A stretch of 64,000 nt of DNA from a virus. Positions 5,431 through 64,000 of the stretch are shown here, piece after piece. The notes beneath the pieces are model-generated. The model saw nothing but the letters and a program-made list of their open reading frames with translations, ran no database searches and had not been told where the DNA came from. The stretch is from IMG/VR virus record IMGVR_UViG_3300025834_000005. One strand, given 5' to 3'. Each line of letters starts with the position of its first letter. The stretch's first letter is position 1. Both the position numbers and the translations under genes were made by a program.

Positions 5431-5925
5431 ATAGAAACAAAGCATAAACAATTAAAACTTTCATCATGAAAAAGAATTAATAAAAATATTCAGATAGGGC
5501 TTATCAATCTCAGGTAGGTAAAGCGGAATAAGGCTGAACATCTATATAAGAAAAGCGAAAGCAAACATCCGCACAGGTTTGCAATTAGCAGTGGACGCAT
5601 TAAAAGGAAGCGTACATGAAAAACATTGGAGGAAATATATAACAAGTACTTCAAATTCCTTTTCTTTAATCGTGACGTTTTTGAAAAGAGTGAGTAGTTT
5701 CGGATGCGGTTAGAGTAATAAGTTAAACGAAAGCGATGATCTTGAGGGAGCAAATAAAAAACTCCAAGTGATTAGTTCATAGCATGTTAACGTAATTTGT
5801 TTTGGGTTTATTCAGGTACGTTGACGCTCACTTAAGATCATTTACAATATTATATTACCTGTATGGGTAATAAACCCGATAAATAACCTGTATGGGTTTA
5901 TTTACCGATTAAAAATAAATCATTT
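5431..5925 (+). ncRNA. candidate large (about 500 nt) noncoding transcript
   Basis: promoter motif 5401..5430 is followed only by a 4-codon mini-ORF (5466..5480); purine-rich, GCGAAAGC-type loops, 12-bp hairpin 5866-5877/5894-5906. Confidence 0.3.
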
Positions 5926-56707: not shown

Positions 56708-57310
56708 ATGATCTCAGCAAATATTACAACATACATTGGTCAAGACTCTGATGCTCAGCACTATTACTGTAATTACTTTGACAGTCCTAATATATATGGA
56801 TTGCCTAAAGAACGTTATTCTGTGGGTAGAAATGAGGATATCGACTTAGATCGAATTATTACTGACCCACACGAAGTCTTAAGGATGAACGATAAACACG
56901 ATAGATGGTATATCGGTATGGAAACTGCCAGATACAATTCAGTCGAACAGATTCATGCTAAATTGTTGGAACTCTTTCCTAATGAGGATATGATCACATA
57001 TTATGAAGATAAGCTTTTCAAGGAAACTATATACATCAAGGACGGCATCAATTTAGGCGTCAAGGCATTTGGCGAAGTTTGGACATATGCCCCAAGCTCA
57101 TACTATAAAGATTTAATATCTGATGATGTTGTTGTGAAAATCAAATGTGATGATTGTGGGCATGAGTATACTCTCGATGAAGTAACCTATGAACAAGAAA
57201 CTATTGATCATGAGGGTAAAACGAGAGATTGGGTTCGTTTCACTAAAAAAAGAGACATGGATGAAGTATGTTGCAAACATTTTAATTTACTCTGGAACGT
57301 AATATTATGA
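56708..57310 (+). CDS. hypothetical protein, 200 aa
   Basis: promoter motif 56664..56693. Confidence 0.65.
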   Translation: MISANITTYIGQDSDAQHYYCNYFDSPNIYGLPKERYSVGRNEDIDLDRIITDPHEVLRMNDKHDRWYIGMETARYNSVEQIHAKLLELFPNEDMITYYEDKLFKETIYIKDGINLGVKAFGEVWTYAPSSYYKDLISDDVVVKIKCDDCGHEYTLDEVTYEQETIDHEGKTRDWVRFTKKRDMDEVCCKHFNLLWNVIL

Positions 57311-57786
57311 AAAACTATTTTTGGGTGAAGCCTAATTATTCATGGTGTAAAACTGACTATTTATTGGCTTATAAAAGTGACTCTGAATACATTTCAGTTG
57401 AAAATGGCGAACGTTATGGCGATATTCATTTATTCAATGTAATACCTATAAAAAAACCTGTGTTCGTACAAAAAACAAAAATTACGACAAAGGAAACTGG
57501 CGACATAATGAATGTCTTAAGAACTAAAGGCATTATTAATAATGGTGTGGCTTATGTAACAGGAAAATGGCTAAAGCCCTGTGCAAAGGGATATGGCTTA
57601 AATCCTAAAGACATTAAAGACGACGCATTTTACTATGTTTCTGATGGTAGGTGGGAATTTAAACCAAAAGAGGTTTCACCATTTTATGTATCAGAACATA
57701 TCATTCAATACTGTAATGAGAGCATTCTTGAGCATAATAATAAAACCGATACAGATTACGATTGCATGGAAGCTTGGAATCAATAA
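57307..57786 (+). CDS. hypothetical protein, 159 aa
   Basis: ATGA overlap. Confidence 0.6.
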   Translation: MKNYFWVKPNYSWCKTDYLLAYKSDSEYISVENGERYGDIHLFNVIPIKKPVFVQKTKITTKETGDIMNVLRTKGIINNGVAYVTGKWLKPCAKGYGLNPKDIKDDAFYYVSDGRWEFKPKEVSPFYVSEHIIQYCNESILEHNNKTDTDYDCMEAWNQ

Positions 57787-57950
57787 AATATTGCGGAACG
57801 CACGTCCCTATCAACGTGGCTAAAGTAAATGAATGGGGAATTATAGAGATTTCTACAGGTAACGCAGCCATCTCTTAATAGTGAAGTTGTTCTAACTCGT
57901 CGTTGAGGACAGCCTTTAATAATAAAGGGTTGGGCAAATAGTTATGGATA

Positions 57951-57980
57951 ATAAGCCTGTAGTGTTACTTACAGGCTTAT
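57951..57980. terminator. bidirectional terminator between convergent genes
   Basis: ATAAGCCTGTA / TACAGGCTTAT 11-bp stem, T-rich on the + side. Confidence 0.65.
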
Positions 57981-58477
57981 TTCTTTTTATATAATATACT
58001 GTTAGATATCTCGATCAAATCAGAAGTGTGAATCTTTGACATAACGTCTTTCCGATCACTACGCTGATATTTGTAATTGAATTCTGGCGTTGGTTTGAAT
58101 TCGTCAAATACTTTCTCTTTCATATATTTCTGTAAAGCATATTTACCAACAATGATAAATGAATCCTTTTGTTCGAATGCGAAAAAATCAGCCTTACCAT
58201 ATGCCCATCCTTCAAAGCCTCCAACATTTTTAAATTCAATATAGTGAATAGTTTCGTCAACATCTTCATCTGATCTTAAAGTTTTCTTCATACTTTTAAC
58301 ATCAAATAATAGTCTGCATTGTTGTGGCGTACCAAAATACAGATGCACGCCAACATCCCAATGCTCTTTCATGTCCTGATAAGGTGTTGATTTAAAAGCT
58401 GTTTTAAATAATTTAGCAAACTCAATTTCACATGGCGTTGCATTTGCAAAACATCTATCAATTTCGTCTTGTAGCAT
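57977..58477 (-). CDS. PD-(D/E)xK nuclease-like protein (putative), 166 aa
   Basis: LLFDVKS ... IEFKNV gives D-x22-ExK spacing; divergent from cas3; TATCTTTG box on the - strand at 58494..58501. Confidence 0.5.
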   Translation of the reverse strand: MLQDEIDRCFANATPCEIEFAKLFKTAFKSTPYQDMKEHWDVGVHLYFGTPQQCRLLFDVKSMKKTLRSDEDVDETIHYIEFKNVGGFEGWAYGKADFFAFEQKDSFIIVGKYALQKYMKEKVFDEFKPTPEFNYKYQRSDRKDVMSKIHTSDLIEISNSILYKKK

Positions 58478-58493
58478 AATTCTATATTTTATA

Positions 58494-58501
58494 CAAAGAT
58501 A
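58494..58501 (-). promoter_or_regulatory. TAnnTTTG (-7) box for 57977..58477
   Basis: - strand TATCTTTG 16 nt before the ATG; no clear -33 TTG. Confidence 0.35.
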
Positions 58502-58518
58502 TAAAATATATCACTATT

Positions 58519-58548
58519 TGTAACCTTTTTTAATCATTTACGTATAAT
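58519..58548 (+). promoter_or_regulatory. phage-type promoter motif
   Basis: copy 58 (TATAAT); 17 nt upstream of the cas3 ATG 58566. Confidence 0.6.
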
Positions 58549-58565
58549 AAAGAAAATATAAAAAT

Positions 58566-60842
58566 ATGTTGTTAGCAAAAAGCACTGGAAATATAACATT
58601 GTTAAGTCATTCCACGTTGGTTTCGCATATATGCGAGAAATTAATAAAAAAAGCCTTAAATGTAAAAGATGATGATCTGATTAAGTCAATTAAAATCGGC
58701 GGATTATTACATGACATAGCAAAAGCTTTGTCTATTTTTCAGAAAATGCTGAAAAAACAAAGGGATGAAGATAGTGCGAAAAATAAATTCAGGCATAATG
58801 AGATAGGTTGGGCATTTTTATACAGTTACTTAAATGTTAACGACAGTATACTGTCGTTGGTACTGGATATGATATACTGGCATCATGGGATATCAAATGA
58901 AATGGGTAAATACACATCAGATGAAATTCTCGATAGTATAGCAGATAAGGACGCTGAAATATTAATAATGAAAAATGTTTTAGTGGAATTACTTGGTGCT
59001 GAATATTTATTATCTGCACCACGAGAAGATATATATGGTAAAAAAACTCCCATATATTACACCCTTGACAATTTGAATGAATTTACAGAAAAATCAATAT
59101 TATGTCGCACGTGCTTAATTTCAGCTGATAGACTTGCATCGAAATTAGAAGAGTCTAAATACGCATATGACATTGATAATGAGATTAATTTAATCATTGC
59201 AAAGGAAACGCCATTCAAAATAACAACCTGTCCGAGTGAATATAATAAGAGCAGATTTGACGCTCAGTTGGAGATAGCAAAAAAATGCTCTAACACAACC
59301 ATTGTCAAAGGCCCTGGCGGTTTCGGTAAAACCTGCGTAGGCTTAATCTGGGCATCTTTAAGCAATAAAAAGGTTATATGGGCATGCCCCAGAAATGGCG
59401 TTGCTGAATCAGCATACATATCATTGAAGAATGAAATAGAGTCATTTGGACTGAATATAAAAATGGAATTATTTCTAACTGGCGAGATAAAAGAAGCTAA
59501 TTATGATATCCAAGAACCCTTTACATCTGATATCATAGTAACGAATATTGACAATTTTCTCAGTCCAACCGTTAGTATGCGTTCAGCTGACCGACTATTT
59601 TTAATTAATAATGCTGATGTTATATTTGACGAATATCATGAATTAACAACAGAAGCCGCATTATTCGCATGTTCCATAAATATCATGCGTCTACGCAACA
59701 TGTTTACAGATTCAAGAACATTATTTTTATCTGCAACACCGATAGCTGTGGAATTTTTATGGAATACTATATCCAGACCCACATTAGTATTACCAAATGC
59801 TGCAACACATTACAAAGCTGCTCATGATCGTAAAGCATTAATTCGAATTACTGATAACTTACCTAAGTTAGAGGAATCAAATACATTATATTTGACAAAC
59901 GCTATTTCAAATGCACAAGATTATAAGGACATGTTTGACTGTAATAGTTTAATACACAGCGGATTCACAGAAGAAGATAAGCATACGAAAATACTTGACC
60001 TATATACTGTATATGGTAAGTCAAGTATTAGAAATATAAAAAAGCCCAATGTTATGGGTACTCGCATCATACAAGCCAGTTTTGATATATCATTTCAAAA
60101 TGTTTCTGAATCAGTTTTATCGCCAGAGGCAACGATGCAAGCATTACCGAGAGGCGAAAGATGGGGCGATTATATCAAACAAGCAATATTTACGACATAT
60201 AACGTTCGTGGTTATGAATCTAAAGCCGAAAATAAAGTGCGTGACATACTATATGAGAAAGACCTTACAGATATATGGTTTGAATATTTGAGACAGTTTA
60301 ATGGTACTCAAATGTCATTTGACGAACTATACTGCGTATATAATGAATACAGTTCAATTCATAAAAAGGAAATTAAGGATTATATACTAAGGAAATATCG
60401 CACAAGCAGAACAATTCTCAGTACGATCTACCCAAAACATTTCAGAAATATTTCAAAAACAGCGATAAAAACAGCTGGAAGTAATAAATTAAGATCAGTC
60501 GGTAACGAAATATTCGTAACAATGCGATATTATAATTCAGATAAATATACCAATCCTATAAGCACAAGAATATATAAATCTATCGATATCGACTTTGATG
60601 AAACCTCAAAAACAAGGACTCAATTAATTCATGCGATGCAAGCAATATCAAAAAGCGGTGACGAAAGGTTTGAATATGAGGAACTTCTAAATAACAAGGA
60701 AAACATGACCTTAGACGCAATCCGAAAATACGGTTTAAAATCAAATACACCATATATAAGGTTTGACCAAGTATATCATCCTGACTACGGCGGTATAAAA
60801 CCAGCACGATTAGAAAATATTTTAAAAAGCTTAAAAAAGTAG
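58566..60842 (+). CDS. cas3: Cas3 HD nuclease / SF2 helicase
   Basis: HD motifs LLSHS, LLHDIAK, RHNEIGW, YWHHG, SADRLAS; helicase motifs GPGGFGKT (I), DEYH (II), SAT (III), IQASFD (V); promoter motif 58519..58548. Confidence 0.85.
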   Translation: MLLAKSTGNITLLSHSTLVSHICEKLIKKALNVKDDDLIKSIKIGGLLHDIAKALSIFQKMLKKQRDEDSAKNKFRHNEIGWAFLYSYLNVNDSILSLVLDMIYWHHGISNEMGKYTSDEILDSIADKDAEILIMKNVLVELLGAEYLLSAPREDIYGKKTPIYYTLDNLNEFTEKSILCRTCLISADRLASKLEESKYAYDIDNEINLIIAKETPFKITTCPSEYNKSRFDAQLEIAKKCSNTTIVKGPGGFGKTCVGLIWASLSNKKVIWACPRNGVAESAYISLKNEIESFGLNIKMELFLTGEIKEANYDIQEPFTSDIIVTNIDNFLSPTVSMRSADRLFLINNADVIFDEYHELTTEAALFACSINIMRLRNMFTDSRTLFLSATPIAVEFLWNTISRPTLVLPNAATHYKAAHDRKALIRITDNLPKLEESNTLYLTNAISNAQDYKDMFDCNSLIHSGFTEEDKHTKILDLYTVYGKSSIRNIKKPNVMGTRIIQASFDISFQNVSESVLSPEATMQALPRGERWGDYIKQAIFTTYNVRGYESKAENKVRDILYEKDLTDIWFEYLRQFNGTQMSFDELYCVYNEYSSIHKKEIKDYILRKYRTSRTILSTIYPKHFRNISKTAIKTAGSNKLRSVGNEIFVTMRYYNSDKYTNPISTRIYKSIDIDFDETSKTRTQLIHAMQAISKSGDERFEYEELLNNKENMTLDAIRKYGLKSNTPYIRFDQVYHPDYGGIKPARLENILKSLKK

Positions 60843-60872
60843 TTGTATATATAAAAATAAGTTTTACCTTTG
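60843..60872 (+). promoter_or_regulatory. host-type promoter in front of cas7-cas5-cas6
   Basis: TTG-N19-TACCTTTG, 37 nt before ATG 60910. Confidence 0.5.
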
Positions 60873-60909
60873 TCGCATAATAATAAATCAAATTTTAATA
60901 ATTTTAAAA

Positions 60910-61980
60910 ATGACAGTAAAAAACATTTTATTTAAAGTCGATCTAATCGGCAATGGTATCGTAAACATGGACTCGAATGAGCAGAAATGGGTTTTTAATG
61001 ATACCGACTCACACCTGAAATCCTTTTATAAAAACACTTCATATGCGAAGAAAAATTTCTACAAAGATGAAAACGGTAAATTGATTTACAAGATCAAGAT
61101 TTCATCTGATTGTCTTAAACACGACATGTATAAGACAGACGTGATCGCACAATCTCCAAAGATCGCTATTGAGGACACAGTGCTTTATGCTTTTATTGCG
61201 TCTCCCATGTCAATTGCCAGAGGCTACCTGTTCGCAAACAAAAAGGAAACGTTAAAGAGACGTGGTGCTCTATGCATTTGTGACGCTGAACAAACCTGTA
61301 ACGCTGTATCGACTATGGAATTCTTTTCCAAATCAGGCGAAAAAACCACAAACGATGGCGACACGGATAAAGCAGATACAACTATCTACAAAAAAGAAAC
61401 TGTTGGGGATATTAAGTATACTACAATCGGAGATATCGACCTATCAGCTTTGCAGTTCATCAGCACCGATCAGGTTTTCGATAGGTTCGCTTTTAATCCT
61501 GATAAATTTTCGATGTATAAATCATTCTTAAGCATGAGAATGAAAAACTTCAACTCTGAATTAGGTTACTACCAACTGAACGGTTCAGCTATTGATATTC
61601 CTGAGTACGGAATTAAGCTTTCAAATGAAAACGTTCTTGATCTTGTTAAAGACACCCTGAAAAAGCTGTTGGCTATTAACATAAAAAGAAAAGGCTCGTT
61701 CGCTAAAGTATCTTCTTTGAAAATTAAACTGGTTGAAAATCCGATTGAAGAATTTTTAACAGGTGACGATAACTGGATTGATTTAAAAAGCTTCGAAGAT
61801 ATCGATAAACTCGATTTTGTTGCTGACGACTTCTACGGCTATGTTGATCTTGCCGAAGCATTGAAACGCAGAGAAGCTATCGAAGAAGCCTTAAGAGCTG
61901 AAAAAGCTAAGGATAAAGCTGAAAAGCTTGATAAAGATTCTAAGAAAGCAGCATCAAAAAAAGCTAAAGATGCCGAGTGA
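60910..61980 (+). CDS. cas7: Cas7-like backbone subunit with Lys/Glu-rich C-terminal tail
   Basis: position in the operon; GNGIVNMDSNE and ISSDCLKHDMYK resemble the Cas7 (Csa2/DevR-type) N-terminal motifs; tail EEALRAEKAKDKAEKLDKDSKKAASKKAKDAE. Confidence 0.55.
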   Translation: MTVKNILFKVDLIGNGIVNMDSNEQKWVFNDTDSHLKSFYKNTSYAKKNFYKDENGKLIYKIKISSDCLKHDMYKTDVIAQSPKIAIEDTVLYAFIASPMSIARGYLFANKKETLKRRGALCICDAEQTCNAVSTMEFFSKSGEKTTNDGDTDKADTTIYKKETVGDIKYTTIGDIDLSALQFISTDQVFDRFAFNPDKFSMYKSFLSMRMKNFNSELGYYQLNGSAIDIPEYGIKLSNENVLDLVKDTLKKLLAINIKRKGSFAKVSSLKIKLVENPIEEFLTGDDNWIDLKSFEDIDKLDFVADDFYGYVDLAEALKRREAIEEALRAEKAKDKAEKLDKDSKKAASKKAKDAE

Positions 61981-62803
61981 GATTAAATGCTTAACTTTAA
62001 AGTTCCGAAACGCTAAACTGTTTCGGAACGATAAAAAATGCCCTGATTATGTATCAGATATCAACGGCATTAGAAAAAGAACCGATGAGCCTCAGTATGT
62101 TGAGCCTATAACTGCTTATCAGGTAGCCAACGTATTACGAACATTATTCGGCGAAAGACCTGTTCCATCATTAAGGAAAGTTTTATTCACTGGTGATAAA
62201 TATTATCATGATAAGGCAAACGAATCATTAATACGTATTGATGGCTATAAACGATTTAATAAAAATAAACAAGAATTTCAGTATGTAACTGAATTAATGT
62301 CAACAAAAAAAATCGTAAGCAATAGCTATAATTCGACGCCAGTTATAACATGGAATATTGTAAAAAGATATGTGGGTGATGAAAACATGGAATGGTTTAT
62401 CGCCGAGCTATCAAGACTTATGATCAATCCTTTGGATAAACCATTTGAAGAGGTTCGTGCTGTATTACTAAACAGCGATTACAATATTCTTGCTACTGGA
62501 CTTAAAGCCAGAATGCTTACAGGTTTAGTTGAGTATATAAAAAATGATAAGATGGCTTATCAGATGACAGCTAAAACAGAAACAGCCTTGATCTATAATA
62601 ATGGTATTGAGAATATTGTTGTTTTAAGCGGAGAGATATTAGTTCCTGTTAGCGATGAAGACCTTGAAAAACTCTCAAAATCAAAGGGTTGTTCAACAAT
62701 TCTCGATGGCGGCTTAGTTTGGATTGACTCGATCAAATCCTATAACTTTGTTTCTGATGATGGCTTTACCAAAGTATGCGACATTTCAACTGAAAAATAT
62801 TAA
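61970..62803 (+). CDS. cas5: Cas5-like subunit (277 aa from ATG 61970; track ORF starts at 61928)
   Basis: position between the cas7-like gene and cas6; N-terminus LTLKFRNAKLFRN...PITAYQVANVLRTLFGE resembles the Cas5 N-terminal strand-helix pattern; 11-nt overlap with the cas7-like gene. Confidence 0.45.
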   Translation: MPSEIKCLTLKFRNAKLFRNDKKCPDYVSDINGIRKRTDEPQYVEPITAYQVANVLRTLFGERPVPSLRKVLFTGDKYYHDKANESLIRIDGYKRFNKNKQEFQYVTELMSTKKIVSNSYNSTPVITWNIVKRYVGDENMEWFIAELSRLMINPLDKPFEEVRAVLLNSDYNILATGLKARMLTGLVEYIKNDKMAYQMTAKTETALIYNNGIENIVVLSGEILVPVSDEDLEKLSKSKGCSTILDGGLVWIDSIKSYNFVSDDGFTKVCDISTEKY

Positions 62804-62806
62804 ACA

Positions 62807-63541
62807 ATGAGATTAAAAGTAGAATTCAATTCGACAACAGAAAGCGTACCCAGCAATCTAAAGCATTTAAATAGCTTTATTCATAGGATTTTGGGCGAAA
62901 ATAACATATACCATAACAAAAGCGGAGACTACAGCATTTCGCATCTATGTGGCGGTAAACTAAGCAAAGATAGATTAACTGTTTCCTTTCCCAATGGTAG
63001 CCCATTTATTATCATAACCTCTGAGGATATGACATTTTTAAATAAGATTATCGTGGGGTTAATGGATGAAAAAAATAAGGATTATGGTTTTGGCGTGACA
63101 TTTAAAAACATGACCTTTATTAATGAGGAATTGTATAATGGATGGAATCACTTCTTTGTGCTATCGCCAATTTTAATTAAAGGACGTGAGGAAAATGACC
63201 CAAGATACATCAATATCCTATCTAAAGATGAATCTGGTAGACATACGGTTATTAATGAGAATTATAAAGACAGACTGCAAAAACAGATCATTCATAAATT
63301 CTCAACAATCGACCCTACCTTAGACTTCTCAGACTTTGAACTGGTTATCAGCGACAAGCTTAAACGTGTGTATAATATCATGGATAAAAATGTTATTAAT
63401 TCAGCCTCTGTGTTTCAATTCAGCGTCAAAACAAATAAAAAGGTTGCTACCATGCTCTACAATATCGGCGTAGGTCAATCAACTAATTCAGGCTTTGGCA
63501 CGATCTATAAAACCGAAAATTATGATCTTTTCAAATTTTAG
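62807..63541 (+). CDS. cas6: Cas6-like crRNA endoribonuclease
   Basis: MRLKVEF... start, C-terminal Gly-rich loop GVGQSTNSGFGTIYK, located immediately upstream of the array. Confidence 0.65.
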   Translation: MRLKVEFNSTTESVPSNLKHLNSFIHRILGENNIYHNKSGDYSISHLCGGKLSKDRLTVSFPNGSPFIIITSEDMTFLNKIIVGLMDEKNKDYGFGVTFKNMTFINEELYNGWNHFFVLSPILIKGREENDPRYINILSKDESGRHTVINENYKDRLQKQIIHKFSTIDPTLDFSDFELVISDKLKRVYNIMDKNVINSASVFQFSVKTNKKVATMLYNIGVGQSTNSGFGTIYKTENYDLFKF

Positions 63542-63550
63542 GAATAAGAA

Positions 63551-63591
63551 AATCATGACAAAAGAACCCCATAATAGCTTTTGTCATGATT
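63551..63591 (+). terminator. hairpin between cas6 and the CRISPR array
   Basis: AATCATGACAAAAG / CTTTTGTCATGATT 14-bp stem followed by TTTAT. Confidence 0.55.
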
Positions 63592-63648
63592 TTATGGATC
63601 AAAATGCGAATGTAACTAACTGTGATAGTCGCATTTGCTGCGAGGTAC

Positions 63649-64000
63649 AGTGGTATATAATTCGATTCTAAAGGGAATCACAACTAATTCATGTGCGGTA
63701 ATGCTGCAAACCAGAGTGGTATATAATTCGATTCTAAAGGGAATCACAACACTTATTGACGAGGCAGATGCAATTGCGACAGTGGTATATAATTCGATTC
63801 TAAAGGGAATCACAACTTCTCATGTATTTATTATCGAAGCCAGACAAGTGGTATATAATTCGATTCTAAAGGGAATCACAACGTGGCATGTAAGATTGCA
63901 GCAGGTAGCTTGAGTGGTATATAATTCGATTCTAAAGGGAATCACAAATAAGCTTCAAAAGTATGATAATGACATTATAGTGGTATATAGTTCAACACCA
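63649..64000 (+). CRISPR. CRISPR array: 36-nt repeat AGTGGTATATAATTCGATTCTAAAGGGAATCACAAC, 30-nt spacers
   Basis: repeats at 63649-63684, 63715-63750, 63781-63816, 63847-63882, 63913-63948 (last base C to A), and a degenerate sixth repeat from 63979 cut by the window end; five unique 30-nt spacers. Confidence 0.95.

Follow-up and report, generated by a model that had tools for sequence, protein, structure and literature searches.

The minimal type I CRISPR system of Shewanella putrefaciens CN-32 belongs to subtype I-Fv (I-F2). Its CRISPR-associated complex for antiviral defence (Cascade) has no large or small subunit and is made up of Cas7fv, Cas5fv and a Cas6, and the HD nuclease Cas3 acts in interference. 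The canonical I-Fv repeat is 28 nt long. Here, a related locus is described that lies at the end of a 64,000-nt stretch of viral DNA (IMG/VR record IMGVR_UViG_3300025834_000005), referred to below as the window; positions are those of this stretch and the array is described on the + strand. The locus comprises four cas genes followed by a CRISPR array, and its source genome is a ~328-kb phage-like contig that was assembled separately, at 328,334, 328,374 and 328,453 bp, from different samples.

Two components of the interpretation given below are known already, namely adaptation-less CRISPR systems in huge phages, in some cases with host-like repeats (Al-Shayeb et al. 2020, PMC7162821), and the loading of one CRISPR type in trans by another (Hoikkala et al. 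2021, PMC8092290). The latter study reports that, in Bacteroidota, type II-C and VI-B repeats have GTTGT in common at the leader-distal end, that poly(A) and poly(T) tracts occur in both kinds of leader at distances of up to ~100 bp from the junction, and that in Flavobacterium columnare the II-C Cas1 supplies spacers to a VI-B array without a cas1 of its own. Adaptation by II-C systems of Bacteroidota picks a motif some bases off the protospacer, NNNNNTAAA in F. columnare (PMC8092290).

We interpret the repeats in the window as the leader-proximal part of an 11-repeat array that serves a Cas8-less, adaptation-less I-Fv-like interference module, and into which the II-C Cas1-Cas2 of the host would load spacers in trans. 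The probability that we attach to this reading as a whole is about 0.55. The format, the repeat ends and the lack of memory-writing genes in the ~74 kb examined suggest that the phage depends on its host for new spacers, and loading in trans by a host II-C Cas1-Cas2 is our best inference, if a better founded one than before.

The array

Five copies of the repeat AGTGGTATATAATTCGATTCTAAAGGGAATCACAAC start at 63649, 63715, 63781, 63847 and 63913, a period of 66 bp, and shuffles of the window yielded zero matches to this repeat. With a 36-nt repeat, the period makes the spacers exactly 30 nt, and the five intact repeats and exact spacers reported in an initial annotation of this stretch, which was made from the sequence alone, were confirmed. 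Starting at the leader, repeat 1 (63649-63684) is followed by spacer 1 (63685-63714), repeat 2 (63715-63750) by spacer 2 (63751-63780), repeat 3 (63781-63816) by spacer 3 (63817-63846), repeat 4 (63847-63882) by spacer 4 (63883-63912) and repeat 5 (63913-63948) by spacer 5 (63949-63978), all on the + strand and all spacers 30 nt long. The change of the last base of repeat 5 from C to A and the degeneracy of repeat 6, both noticed previously, are also correct. Repeat 6 (63979-64000, + strand) is truncated by the window end and, read whole on the source contig, has 6 mismatches. With it begins a series of six older, decayed repeats that run ~500 bp past the window (L122, 11173-11516).

On the source contig the array has 11 repeats, and thus extends past repeat 6. 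Five are young and identical and six are older, decayed and of another variant (ending ..TATATAGTTCAACACCAAAGGGAATTACAAC). These two generations suggest that replacement or heavy mutation of the repeat next to the leader preceded the last four spacer gains. The decayed six-repeat variant is without the hairpin described below (L122, 10843-11516, compared with L121, L123 and L124). Three other assemblies of the same phage are without spacer 4 and one repeat, an internal difference of 66 bp.

The G+C counts of the five spacers (13, 14, 10, 15 and 7 out of 30) agree with the range of 7/30 to 15/30 given in the initial annotation. That range had been taken there as a sign that not all spacers are phage-like, an argument that does not hold, as the spread fits a binomial at 34% G+C [P(>=15) = 0.05, P(<=7) = 0.15]. 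The four youngest spacers, when pooled, are somewhat G+C-rich (43%), and the mean across the family described below is 33.6%. The spread was rejected as a clue to spacer origin, being the chance range for DNA of 34% G+C.

The cas module

The genes cas3, cas7, cas5 and cas6 are co-oriented and abut one another, with no further open reading frame (ORF) in between. The first, cas3 (58566-60842, + strand), encodes a protein of 758 aa with an HD nuclease and a superfamily 2 (SF2) helicase, and was identified by profile matches (NCBIfam cas3_HD, 62 bits, above the cutoff; PADLOC Cas3fv, 1.5e-51; Pfam DEAD, ResIII and Cas3_HD). Its HD domain starts at residue 12, and the protein is standalone, with no Cas2 fused to it. 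The second gene (60910-61980, + strand) encodes a Cas7fv-like backbone subunit of 356 aa, also recognized by profiles. The NCBIfam Cas7fv match (1.2e-22) scores 81 bits, below the 200-bit cutoff; Cas7fv was further matched in PADLOC (1.3e-18) and in the PDB (5o6u, 3e-11), and the Pfam family PF28157 (Cas7fv-like) was found on the gene call.

The product of the third gene (61970-62803, + strand) is 277 aa long, contains an inserted helical block at about residues 128-200 and had zero sequence-family matches in Pfam, NCBIfam, PADLOC and the PDB. An AlphaFold2 model built from an alignment of 50 relatives had a predicted local distance difference test score (pLDDT) of 91.8, and its best PDB match was chain F of 5o6u, the I-Fv Cascade (probability 0.99, E 2e-3, with a template modelling score of only 0.40). 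The next structural matches were Cas5/Cas7-type subunits of other CRISPR effector complexes. With moderate confidence, the predicted fold makes this protein a candidate Cas5fv-like subunit.

The fourth gene, cas6 (62807-63541, + strand), encodes a generic/Cas6b-like endoribonuclease of 244 aa that was assigned from profile matches (NCBIfam cas_cas6, 63 bits, above the cutoff; PADLOC Cas6b, 2.5e-26; Pfam Cas_Cas6_C). It did not match Cas6f models at E <= 0.01, and all homologues retrieved in a search with Cas6 were family members from metagenomes, with no named relative from a cellular organism among them. The module has neither a Cas8 large subunit nor a Cas11 gene. It is a relative of the minimal type I-Fv (I-F2).

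A Pfam scan found no Cas1, Cas2 or Cas4 among the 97 other ORFs in the window. The initial annotation had named a cas1-cas2 pair just past the window as what would speak against its proposal; the 10 kb beyond the window contains no cas genes, only small ORFs of no known family, an RNA ligase and Thg1. In the wider family, cas1, cas2 and cas4 were absent from three more loci with Pfam-annotated neighbours and from the 25 most frequent of 35 families among 117 flank ORFs of 15 loci. The proposal of an INTERFERENCE-only, phage-borne module is thus borne out over the ~74 of 328 kb covered, where no cas1, cas2 or cas4 was found.

A phage-borne family with one array format

Relatives were found by scanning IMG/VR for two AATCACAAC ends ~66 bp apart, followed by tblastn with the four Cas proteins. 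The gene set, the 36/30 geometry and the cas6-proximal leader recur in about 19 distinct relatives, most of them on IMG/VR viral contigs, which makes the format a native trait of this phage-borne family. The 19 distinct repeats were from IMG/VR contigs of 15 to 597 kb, from this phage and from L135, which is in a 'Bacteroidetes bacterium' bin; the family loci L163-L165 are known via annotated genes only. All 19 repeats end in AATCACAAC and the last 9 nt are invariant, and GTTG is found at the repeat start in only four. Family arrays are co-oriented with the cas genes and usually right behind cas6, with decayed repeats at the cas6-distal end in the loci examined, and the modal spacer is 30 nt (185 of 214 unique family spacers). 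As this format is kept at protein identities to the window of only ~25 to 56%, it is an old and stable trait of the module.

The Cas7 family comprises ~190 metagenome clusters, all annotated as hypothetical, on contigs of up to 364 kb. INPHARED contained no match to the 6.1-kb locus (DNA search) or to Cas7 (protein search), and the family is absent from deposited phage genomes. The exact repeat core had no match in IMG/VR, nor in JGI metagenome contigs, a weak null as that collection evidently is without the source contig. No CRISPR-repeat or other RNA family in Rfam was significant in 57000-64000. On several phage contigs the module is accompanied, tens to hundreds of kb off, by another array of this format, whose repeat differs slightly in some cases; the contigs are 3300008345_000012 (L104 and L026), 3300045988_163575 (L032 and L031) and 3300020045_008999 (L035 and L052).

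Contigs from different samples with the repeat GATAGTAATC... (L008 and L024 vs L048 and L114 vs L118) share their old trailer-end spacers, and the cas6-proximal spacers of these lineages are different (1-2-3, 26-27-28 and 36-28). The difference is at the leader end in related lineages, so acquisition has been ongoing, and polarised, after the lineages split. At the family level, spacer acquisition is ongoing, with natural turnover at the leader end. Several internal spacer blocks are confined to one of the GATAGTAATC... lineages, which points to internal losses.

When 1.5 Mb of retrieved loci was searched with the spacers, there was one true match. All 30 positions of L084 spacer 8 agree with a site in cas7 of the related phage L010 (937-966), and the cas7 of L084 itself (5529-5558) differs at spacer positions 2, 5 and 8. 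The 5' flank of the L010 target is ..CTTGTTG. This single case is consistent with an attack on the DNA of a rival and with a seed on the 5' side of the CRISPR RNA (crRNA), and looks like a phage turning its CRISPR system on the CRISPR system of a rival. The 214 family spacers gave only chance-level matches (E >= 2) in INPHARED. Spacer 1 had no match in IMG/VR or in the metagenome collection, which evidently is without the source contig, and spacers 2 and 4 had none in IMG/VR. The search for protospacers and a protospacer-adjacent motif (PAM) recommended in the initial annotation therefore left spacers 1, 2 and 4 unmatched, and the one protospacer in the family is too few for a PAM.

The leader and the repeat hairpin

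The leader is 107 nt long (63542-63648, + strand), has an A-rich start right behind the cas6 stop and is identical in 5/5 assemblies of the phage. The leader had been placed on the cas6-proximal side and given a length of 57 nt. The side is supported by the decayed repeats, which sit away from cas6 in the family loci examined; the length was too short. A run of 5 to 8 A residues is found ~100 nt ahead of the first repeat in 10 of 14 family leaders, and may be compared with the poly(A) tract described near -100 in II-C and VI-B leaders of Flavobacterium (PMC8092290). Most family leaders also start, right after the cas6 stop, with TAG GA(A/T)T..A5-8, often then ATG; this motif was seen at 63542-63557 in the window and in the first ~15 nt in L014, L025, L044, L051, L072, L115 and L135.

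The leader contains a perfect 16 bp hairpin with a 13-nt loop (63549-63593, + strand; arms AAAAUCAUGACAAAAG and CUUUUGUCAUGAUUUU), which is terminator-like, with a U-run in and after the 3' arm. Folded over its full length, the leader reaches -30.4 kcal/mol (z = -4.5 vs shuffles). Unrelated inverted repeats lie between cas6 and the first repeat in other family leaders too. The hairpin could be a terminator, or a bending or binding site for integration.

The repeat forms a hairpin of 6 bp, GATTC(T)/(G)GAATC then ACAAC, at nt 16-31. The initial annotation had described it correctly, and it folds at -5.4 kcal/mol. Taken alone, the fold has no more than a modest edge over shuffled sequences (z = -1.7), as 13 in 200 of these are equally stable. 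Most repeats of the relatives have a hairpin of 3-5 bp at the same site, with the register shifted by 1-2 nt, and 78% of cells pair in the commonest register. The pair 19-27 changes on both sides, from C-G to A-U, in three sequences, a result equalled by 8-11 of 500 shuffles. A small 3' hairpin and an invariant tail would fit processing by Cas6 with a fixed 5' handle.

Resemblance to Bacteroidota type VI-B and II-C arrays

The repeat end and period were used to scan 185,579 species, with one genome each. True arrays with both were found almost only in Bacteroidota, the one exception being on a Synechococcus-binned contig. The positives included Bergeyella, Capnocytophaga, Chryseobacterium, Sphingobacterium, and metagenome-assembled genomes (MAGs) of Flavobacteriales and Bacteroidales, and the large ORFs adjoining the arrays were Cas13b in 5/5 cases tested (E down to 1e-266). 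The VI-B arrays of Bergeyella zoohelcum and other Bacteroidota end in GGTAATCACAAC with a 66-bp period, and the likeness of the + strand end to Cas13b repeats, noted in the initial annotation, is thereby verified. As in the VI-B arrays of Bacteroidota, such as that of B. zoohelcum, a 36-nt repeat with the 3' end ..AGG(G/T)AATCACAAC is combined with a 30-nt spacer, the leader is on the GTTG side, transcription would run from the leader and no adaptation genes of its own were found. In contrast to VI-B, the repeat starts with AGUGG rather than GUUG, though CAAC-3' is present, and there is no poly-U loop (the loop is AAAG/UAAAGG). Only nt 16-31 pair, in the small 3' hairpin of -5.4 kcal/mol, whereas a VI-B repeat folds as a whole (-4 to -11 kcal/mol). 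The match to VI-B repeats is only 20-22 of 36 positions, ~12 of which are imposed by the search pattern. No cas13b is in the window or the 10 kb downstream, the neighbours being cas3, cas7, cas5 and cas6.

Two further VI-B-like arrays, in a Bernardetiaceae MAG (L127) and in Flavobacteriales UBA7612 (L145), adjoin ORFs of 913, 770, 465 and 437 aa. These large ORFs had no PADLOC match, and no Cas13b is within 5-8 kb; L127 and L145 may be orphan arrays, or the effector may be farther off.

The resemblance to II-C arrays, also raised in the initial annotation, was verified against published Bacteroides repeats. The leader-distal 20 nt (GTTGTGATTCCCTTTAGAAT, - strand) match the II-C repeat of Bacteroides fragilis 638R (GTTGTGATTTGCTTTCAAATT...) at 16 of 20 positions, a level reached by only 1 of 200,000 shuffles. 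The II-C locus of Bacteroides uniformis CECT 7771 has a close variant of this repeat, 30-nt spacers and adjoining cas2 and cas1. The locus in the window and the Bacteroides II-C loci have in common GTTGTG at the leader-distal repeat end, in the same orientation to the leader, and 30-nt spacers. They differ in that the Bacteroides repeats are 47 nt and stand beside cas9-cas1-cas2 with a trans-activating CRISPR RNA (tracrRNA). Neither Cas9 nor Cas1/2 is among the 97 window ORFs. On both strands of the window and the next 10 kb, no anti-repeat was found outside the array at >=24/36, or at 17/22 for the 3' half, and there are no orphan repeats in the window or the 10 kb beyond.

Two simpler assignments were rejected. 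The array is not itself a VI-B or II-C array, as it is without a GUUG end, poly-U loop, tracrRNA and nearby cas9 or cas13b. Nor is it a VI-B or II-C array captured by this phage, as the format travels with cas3-cas7fv-cas5fv-cas6 across ~19 relatives.

Source of new spacers

If the reading we prefer is correct, the II-C Cas1-Cas2 of the host would insert new spacers into the phage array in trans, as it does for VI-B in F. columnare. By analogy with type I, the array would be transcribed in the direction of the cas genes, and Cas6 would cleave each repeat at or within the small 3' hairpin, with the last 8-9 nt (AAUCACAAC) staying as the 5' handle. Cas5fv, about five Cas7fv and Cas6 would then assemble on a crRNA with a 30-nt guide, and Cas3 would degrade matching DNA, most plausibly that of competing phages.

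Several points weigh against this reading. The regions scanned span ~74 of 328 kb (~23%), and a cas1-cas2 pair may be elsewhere in the genome. The searches recovered neither a genome of the host nor a II-C locus or matching repeat from it. The likeness to II-C repeats was seen over the leader-distal 20 nt, at the far end from the leader-proximal AGTGG. A type I complex needs an adjacent PAM and the II-C motif sits several bases away, a mismatch that spacers picked in this way would have to overcome; with a single protospacer, no PAM is derivable. The sole variation within this phage, the presence or absence of spacer 4, is internal and deletion-type, with no gain at the leader end. Finally, GTTG...CAAC-type ends are widespread, and part of the resemblance could be due to old common descent; an archaeal Cas12f repeat, for example, ends in GGAATGCAAC.

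Common descent is central to the strongest competing explanation, in which the format is native to the I-Fv-like lineage, the lineage's own integrase is far away or was recently lost, and the likeness to II-C and VI-B is old ancestry without any cross-talk with the host. We consider this possible and rather doubtful. The repeat does co-vary with the family Cas6 and retains the small hairpin (seen in the 78% pairing and the two-sided change at 19-27), neither the middle of the repeat nor its 5' half resembles a VI-B or II-C repeat, and 23% of the genome was inspected. However, no cas1, cas2 or cas4 is by the module in ~20 loci, with flanks of up to 10 kb and 58 kb upstream here, and close lineages nonetheless differ in their leader-end spacers. 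The 16/20 match to Bacteroides II-C also far exceeds GTTG/CAAC ends, and in cellular genomes the repeat end and period are nearly limited to one phylum. A quite different use of the same likeness would be for phage crRNAs to be meant for a host effector, either Cas13b (+ strand) or Cas9 with a host tracrRNA (- strand), thereby redirecting or jamming host immunity. There are published examples of phages with host-like repeats for which the use of Cas proteins of the host was proposed (PMC7162821, PMC11656645); the repeat length, 30-nt spacer and CAAC-3' end are common to VI-B, and GTTGTGATT is common to Bacteroides II-C repeats. This is nevertheless highly improbable, as in every family member the array immediately follows a full set of effector genes, Cas6 and Cas3 included. 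The three VI-B hallmarks (5'-GUUG end, poly-U loop and whole-repeat hairpin) are also missing, the window and next 10 kb have no anti-repeat or tracrRNA-like sequence, and ~12 of the 20-22 positions out of 36 that match VI-B were set by the search pattern.

The third alternative concerns expression, and is compatible with the other explanations. Each repeat would bear its own promoter (TGGTATATAAT) and the units would be transcribed separately, as in Neisseria and Campylobacter II-C, a suggestion of the initial annotation. Every intact repeat has a perfect TATAAT at positions 8-13, and the strong terminator-like hairpin that separates the array from cas6 means that a promoter of the array itself may be required. 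However, the extended -10 box claimed for the repeat does not survive inspection: the repeat start defined by conservation is AG, which places TGGTATATAAT from repeat position 3, TG is 3 nt rather than 1 nt upstream of TATAAT, and the correctly spaced hexamer, TATATA, is without the key final T. A promoter scan performed at shuffle level (10 sites in total vs 7.2 +/- 2.8 in shuffles), with no promoter-like site in repeats 1-5, and the AT-rich block is shifted out of register or missing in the repeats of relatives. TATAAT is commonly expected at 34% G+C, the main sigma factor of Bacteroidota recognizes TAnnTTTG instead, and a start ~7 nt downstream would land within the Cas6 hairpin. Promoters within the repeats are thus unlikely.

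One format and several effectors

Arrays of the same 36/30 format (e.g. ATTGTGAATCATCCTTAAATGAAAGGTAATCACAAC) were also seen ~112 nt behind small TnpB/Cas12f-like genes on other IMG/VR viral contigs (52-187 kb). These genes (L042, 856-1788; L099, 3834-4766; L043, 9655-10635; L085, 1511-2755; all on the - strand), with the arrays just downstream, encode proteins of 311-415 aa with OrfB_IS605 and Cas12f1-like TNB domains and 52-75% mutual identity. No Cas1 was found in the flanks of these loci. The 112-nt gap is conserved in sequence, opens with TAGGAAACAAAAAC, which is similar to the leader start of the I-Fv-like family, and carries ACCTTTCA, which is complementary to TGAAAGGT of the repeat. 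Because of this complementarity, the gap may be a scaffold RNA, of a tracrRNA- or omega-RNA-like kind.

Given the same-format arrays behind TnpB/Cas12f-like genes, one format therefore accompanies several unrelated effectors, and this adds some weight to loading in trans. A broader proposal is put forward tentatively, and we regard it as less probable than the reading for this locus: a single Bacteroidota format (30-nt spacer, leader-distal GTTGTGATT..CTTT, a leader of ~105-110 nt and an A-run near -100) would be written by II-C Cas1-Cas2 and read by at least four unrelated effectors. Those effectors, named with equal reserve, would be Cas9, Cas13b, the phage Cas8-less Cascade with Cas3, and the phage TnpB/Cas12f-like nuclease. 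If this were true, giant phages would carry the reading half only, and each host would write memory across class 1 and class 2. Were phage arrays written by the host integrase, a virus could gain heritable, sequence-specific weapons against rival phages in mid-infection without adaptation genes, and array format, not effector type, would mark the elements that share one memory-writing machine. It would also pose the puzzle of a type I complex using spacers picked by a Cas9-linked PAM rule.

Phage context and probable host

Among the 97 ORFs in the window, matches were found in 33 PHROG families, and nearly all genes are on one strand. There are no transfer RNA genes in the window and no capsid or tail genes in the stretch examined. 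Genes flanking the module include those for RNA ligase, Thg1 and an HNH-type protein. Positions 1-58000 contain accessory genes, among them three ORFs with a GmrSD N-terminal domain, an ion-channel protein, a NUDIX protein, an ATP-dependent DNA ligase, an RNA ligase, a glucosaminidase/endolysin and a YspA-like SLOG protein; most ORFs there are without a family. The flanks of the module in relatives encode the anti-CBASS (cyclic oligonucleotide-based antiphage signalling system) proteins Acb1 and Acb3, a PARP-domain protein, DNA methylases and gp32. Phages of this family stack counter-defence genes around the CRISPR module.

One family flank ORF has a Por_Secre_tail domain, a type IX secretion sorting signal characteristic of Bacteroidota, and some family contigs were binned as Bacteroidia or Bacteroidetes. 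The host of the phage is probably a member of Bacteroidota.

Comparison with described systems

In the known cases of trans adaptation (F. columnare II-C to VI-B, and plasmid type IV-A3 with host machinery), a locus without cas1-cas2 gains spacers, as is proposed here, and the repeat and leader of the recipient share motifs with the donor system. In those precedents, however, the two loci belong to one cell lineage or to a resident plasmid, and experiments demonstrated the transfer, whereas here the recipient would be a class 1 array on an infecting phage and the argument is drawn from sequences. The locus is also similar to the adaptation-less systems of huge phages (Al-Shayeb et al. 2020, PMC7162821) in being on a phage of >200 kb, with a compact array, no Cas1/2/4 in the ~74 kb examined here and spacers against other phages, of which the family has one case. 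The type I variant in that study is different, as it is I-C-like and has no Cas6 and a helicase replacing Cas3.

The family has a very small Cascade, of three subunits plus Cas3, and a 30-nt guide. Both a Cas8-less I-Fv-like family with a non-Cas6f Cas6 and a standalone Cas3, and the consistent II-C/VI-B Bacteroidota format of its arrays, appear to be undescribed in the literature searched, the scope of which did not extend to the 2022 survey of virus-encoded systems.

The closest relative remains the I-Fv system of S. putrefaciens CN-32, to which Cas7 is matched by sequence and the Cas5 candidate by predicted fold. Canonical I-Fv has a Cas2-3 fusion and Cas1, whereas in the window Cas3 is alone, Cas6 is of another kind than Cas6f, and neither Cas1 nor Cas2 was found there or in the 10 kb beyond. 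The spacers of canonical I-Fv, the nearest relative by its Cas proteins, are 32 nt, in contrast to the 36-nt repeat and 30-nt spacer here, and the view in the initial annotation that 36/30 is atypical for type I is upheld in this respect. As the I-Fv backbone accommodates both shorter and longer spacers, a 30-nt guide is therefore plausible. The S. putrefaciens system is on a bacterial chromosome, whereas the module described here is on a giant phage.

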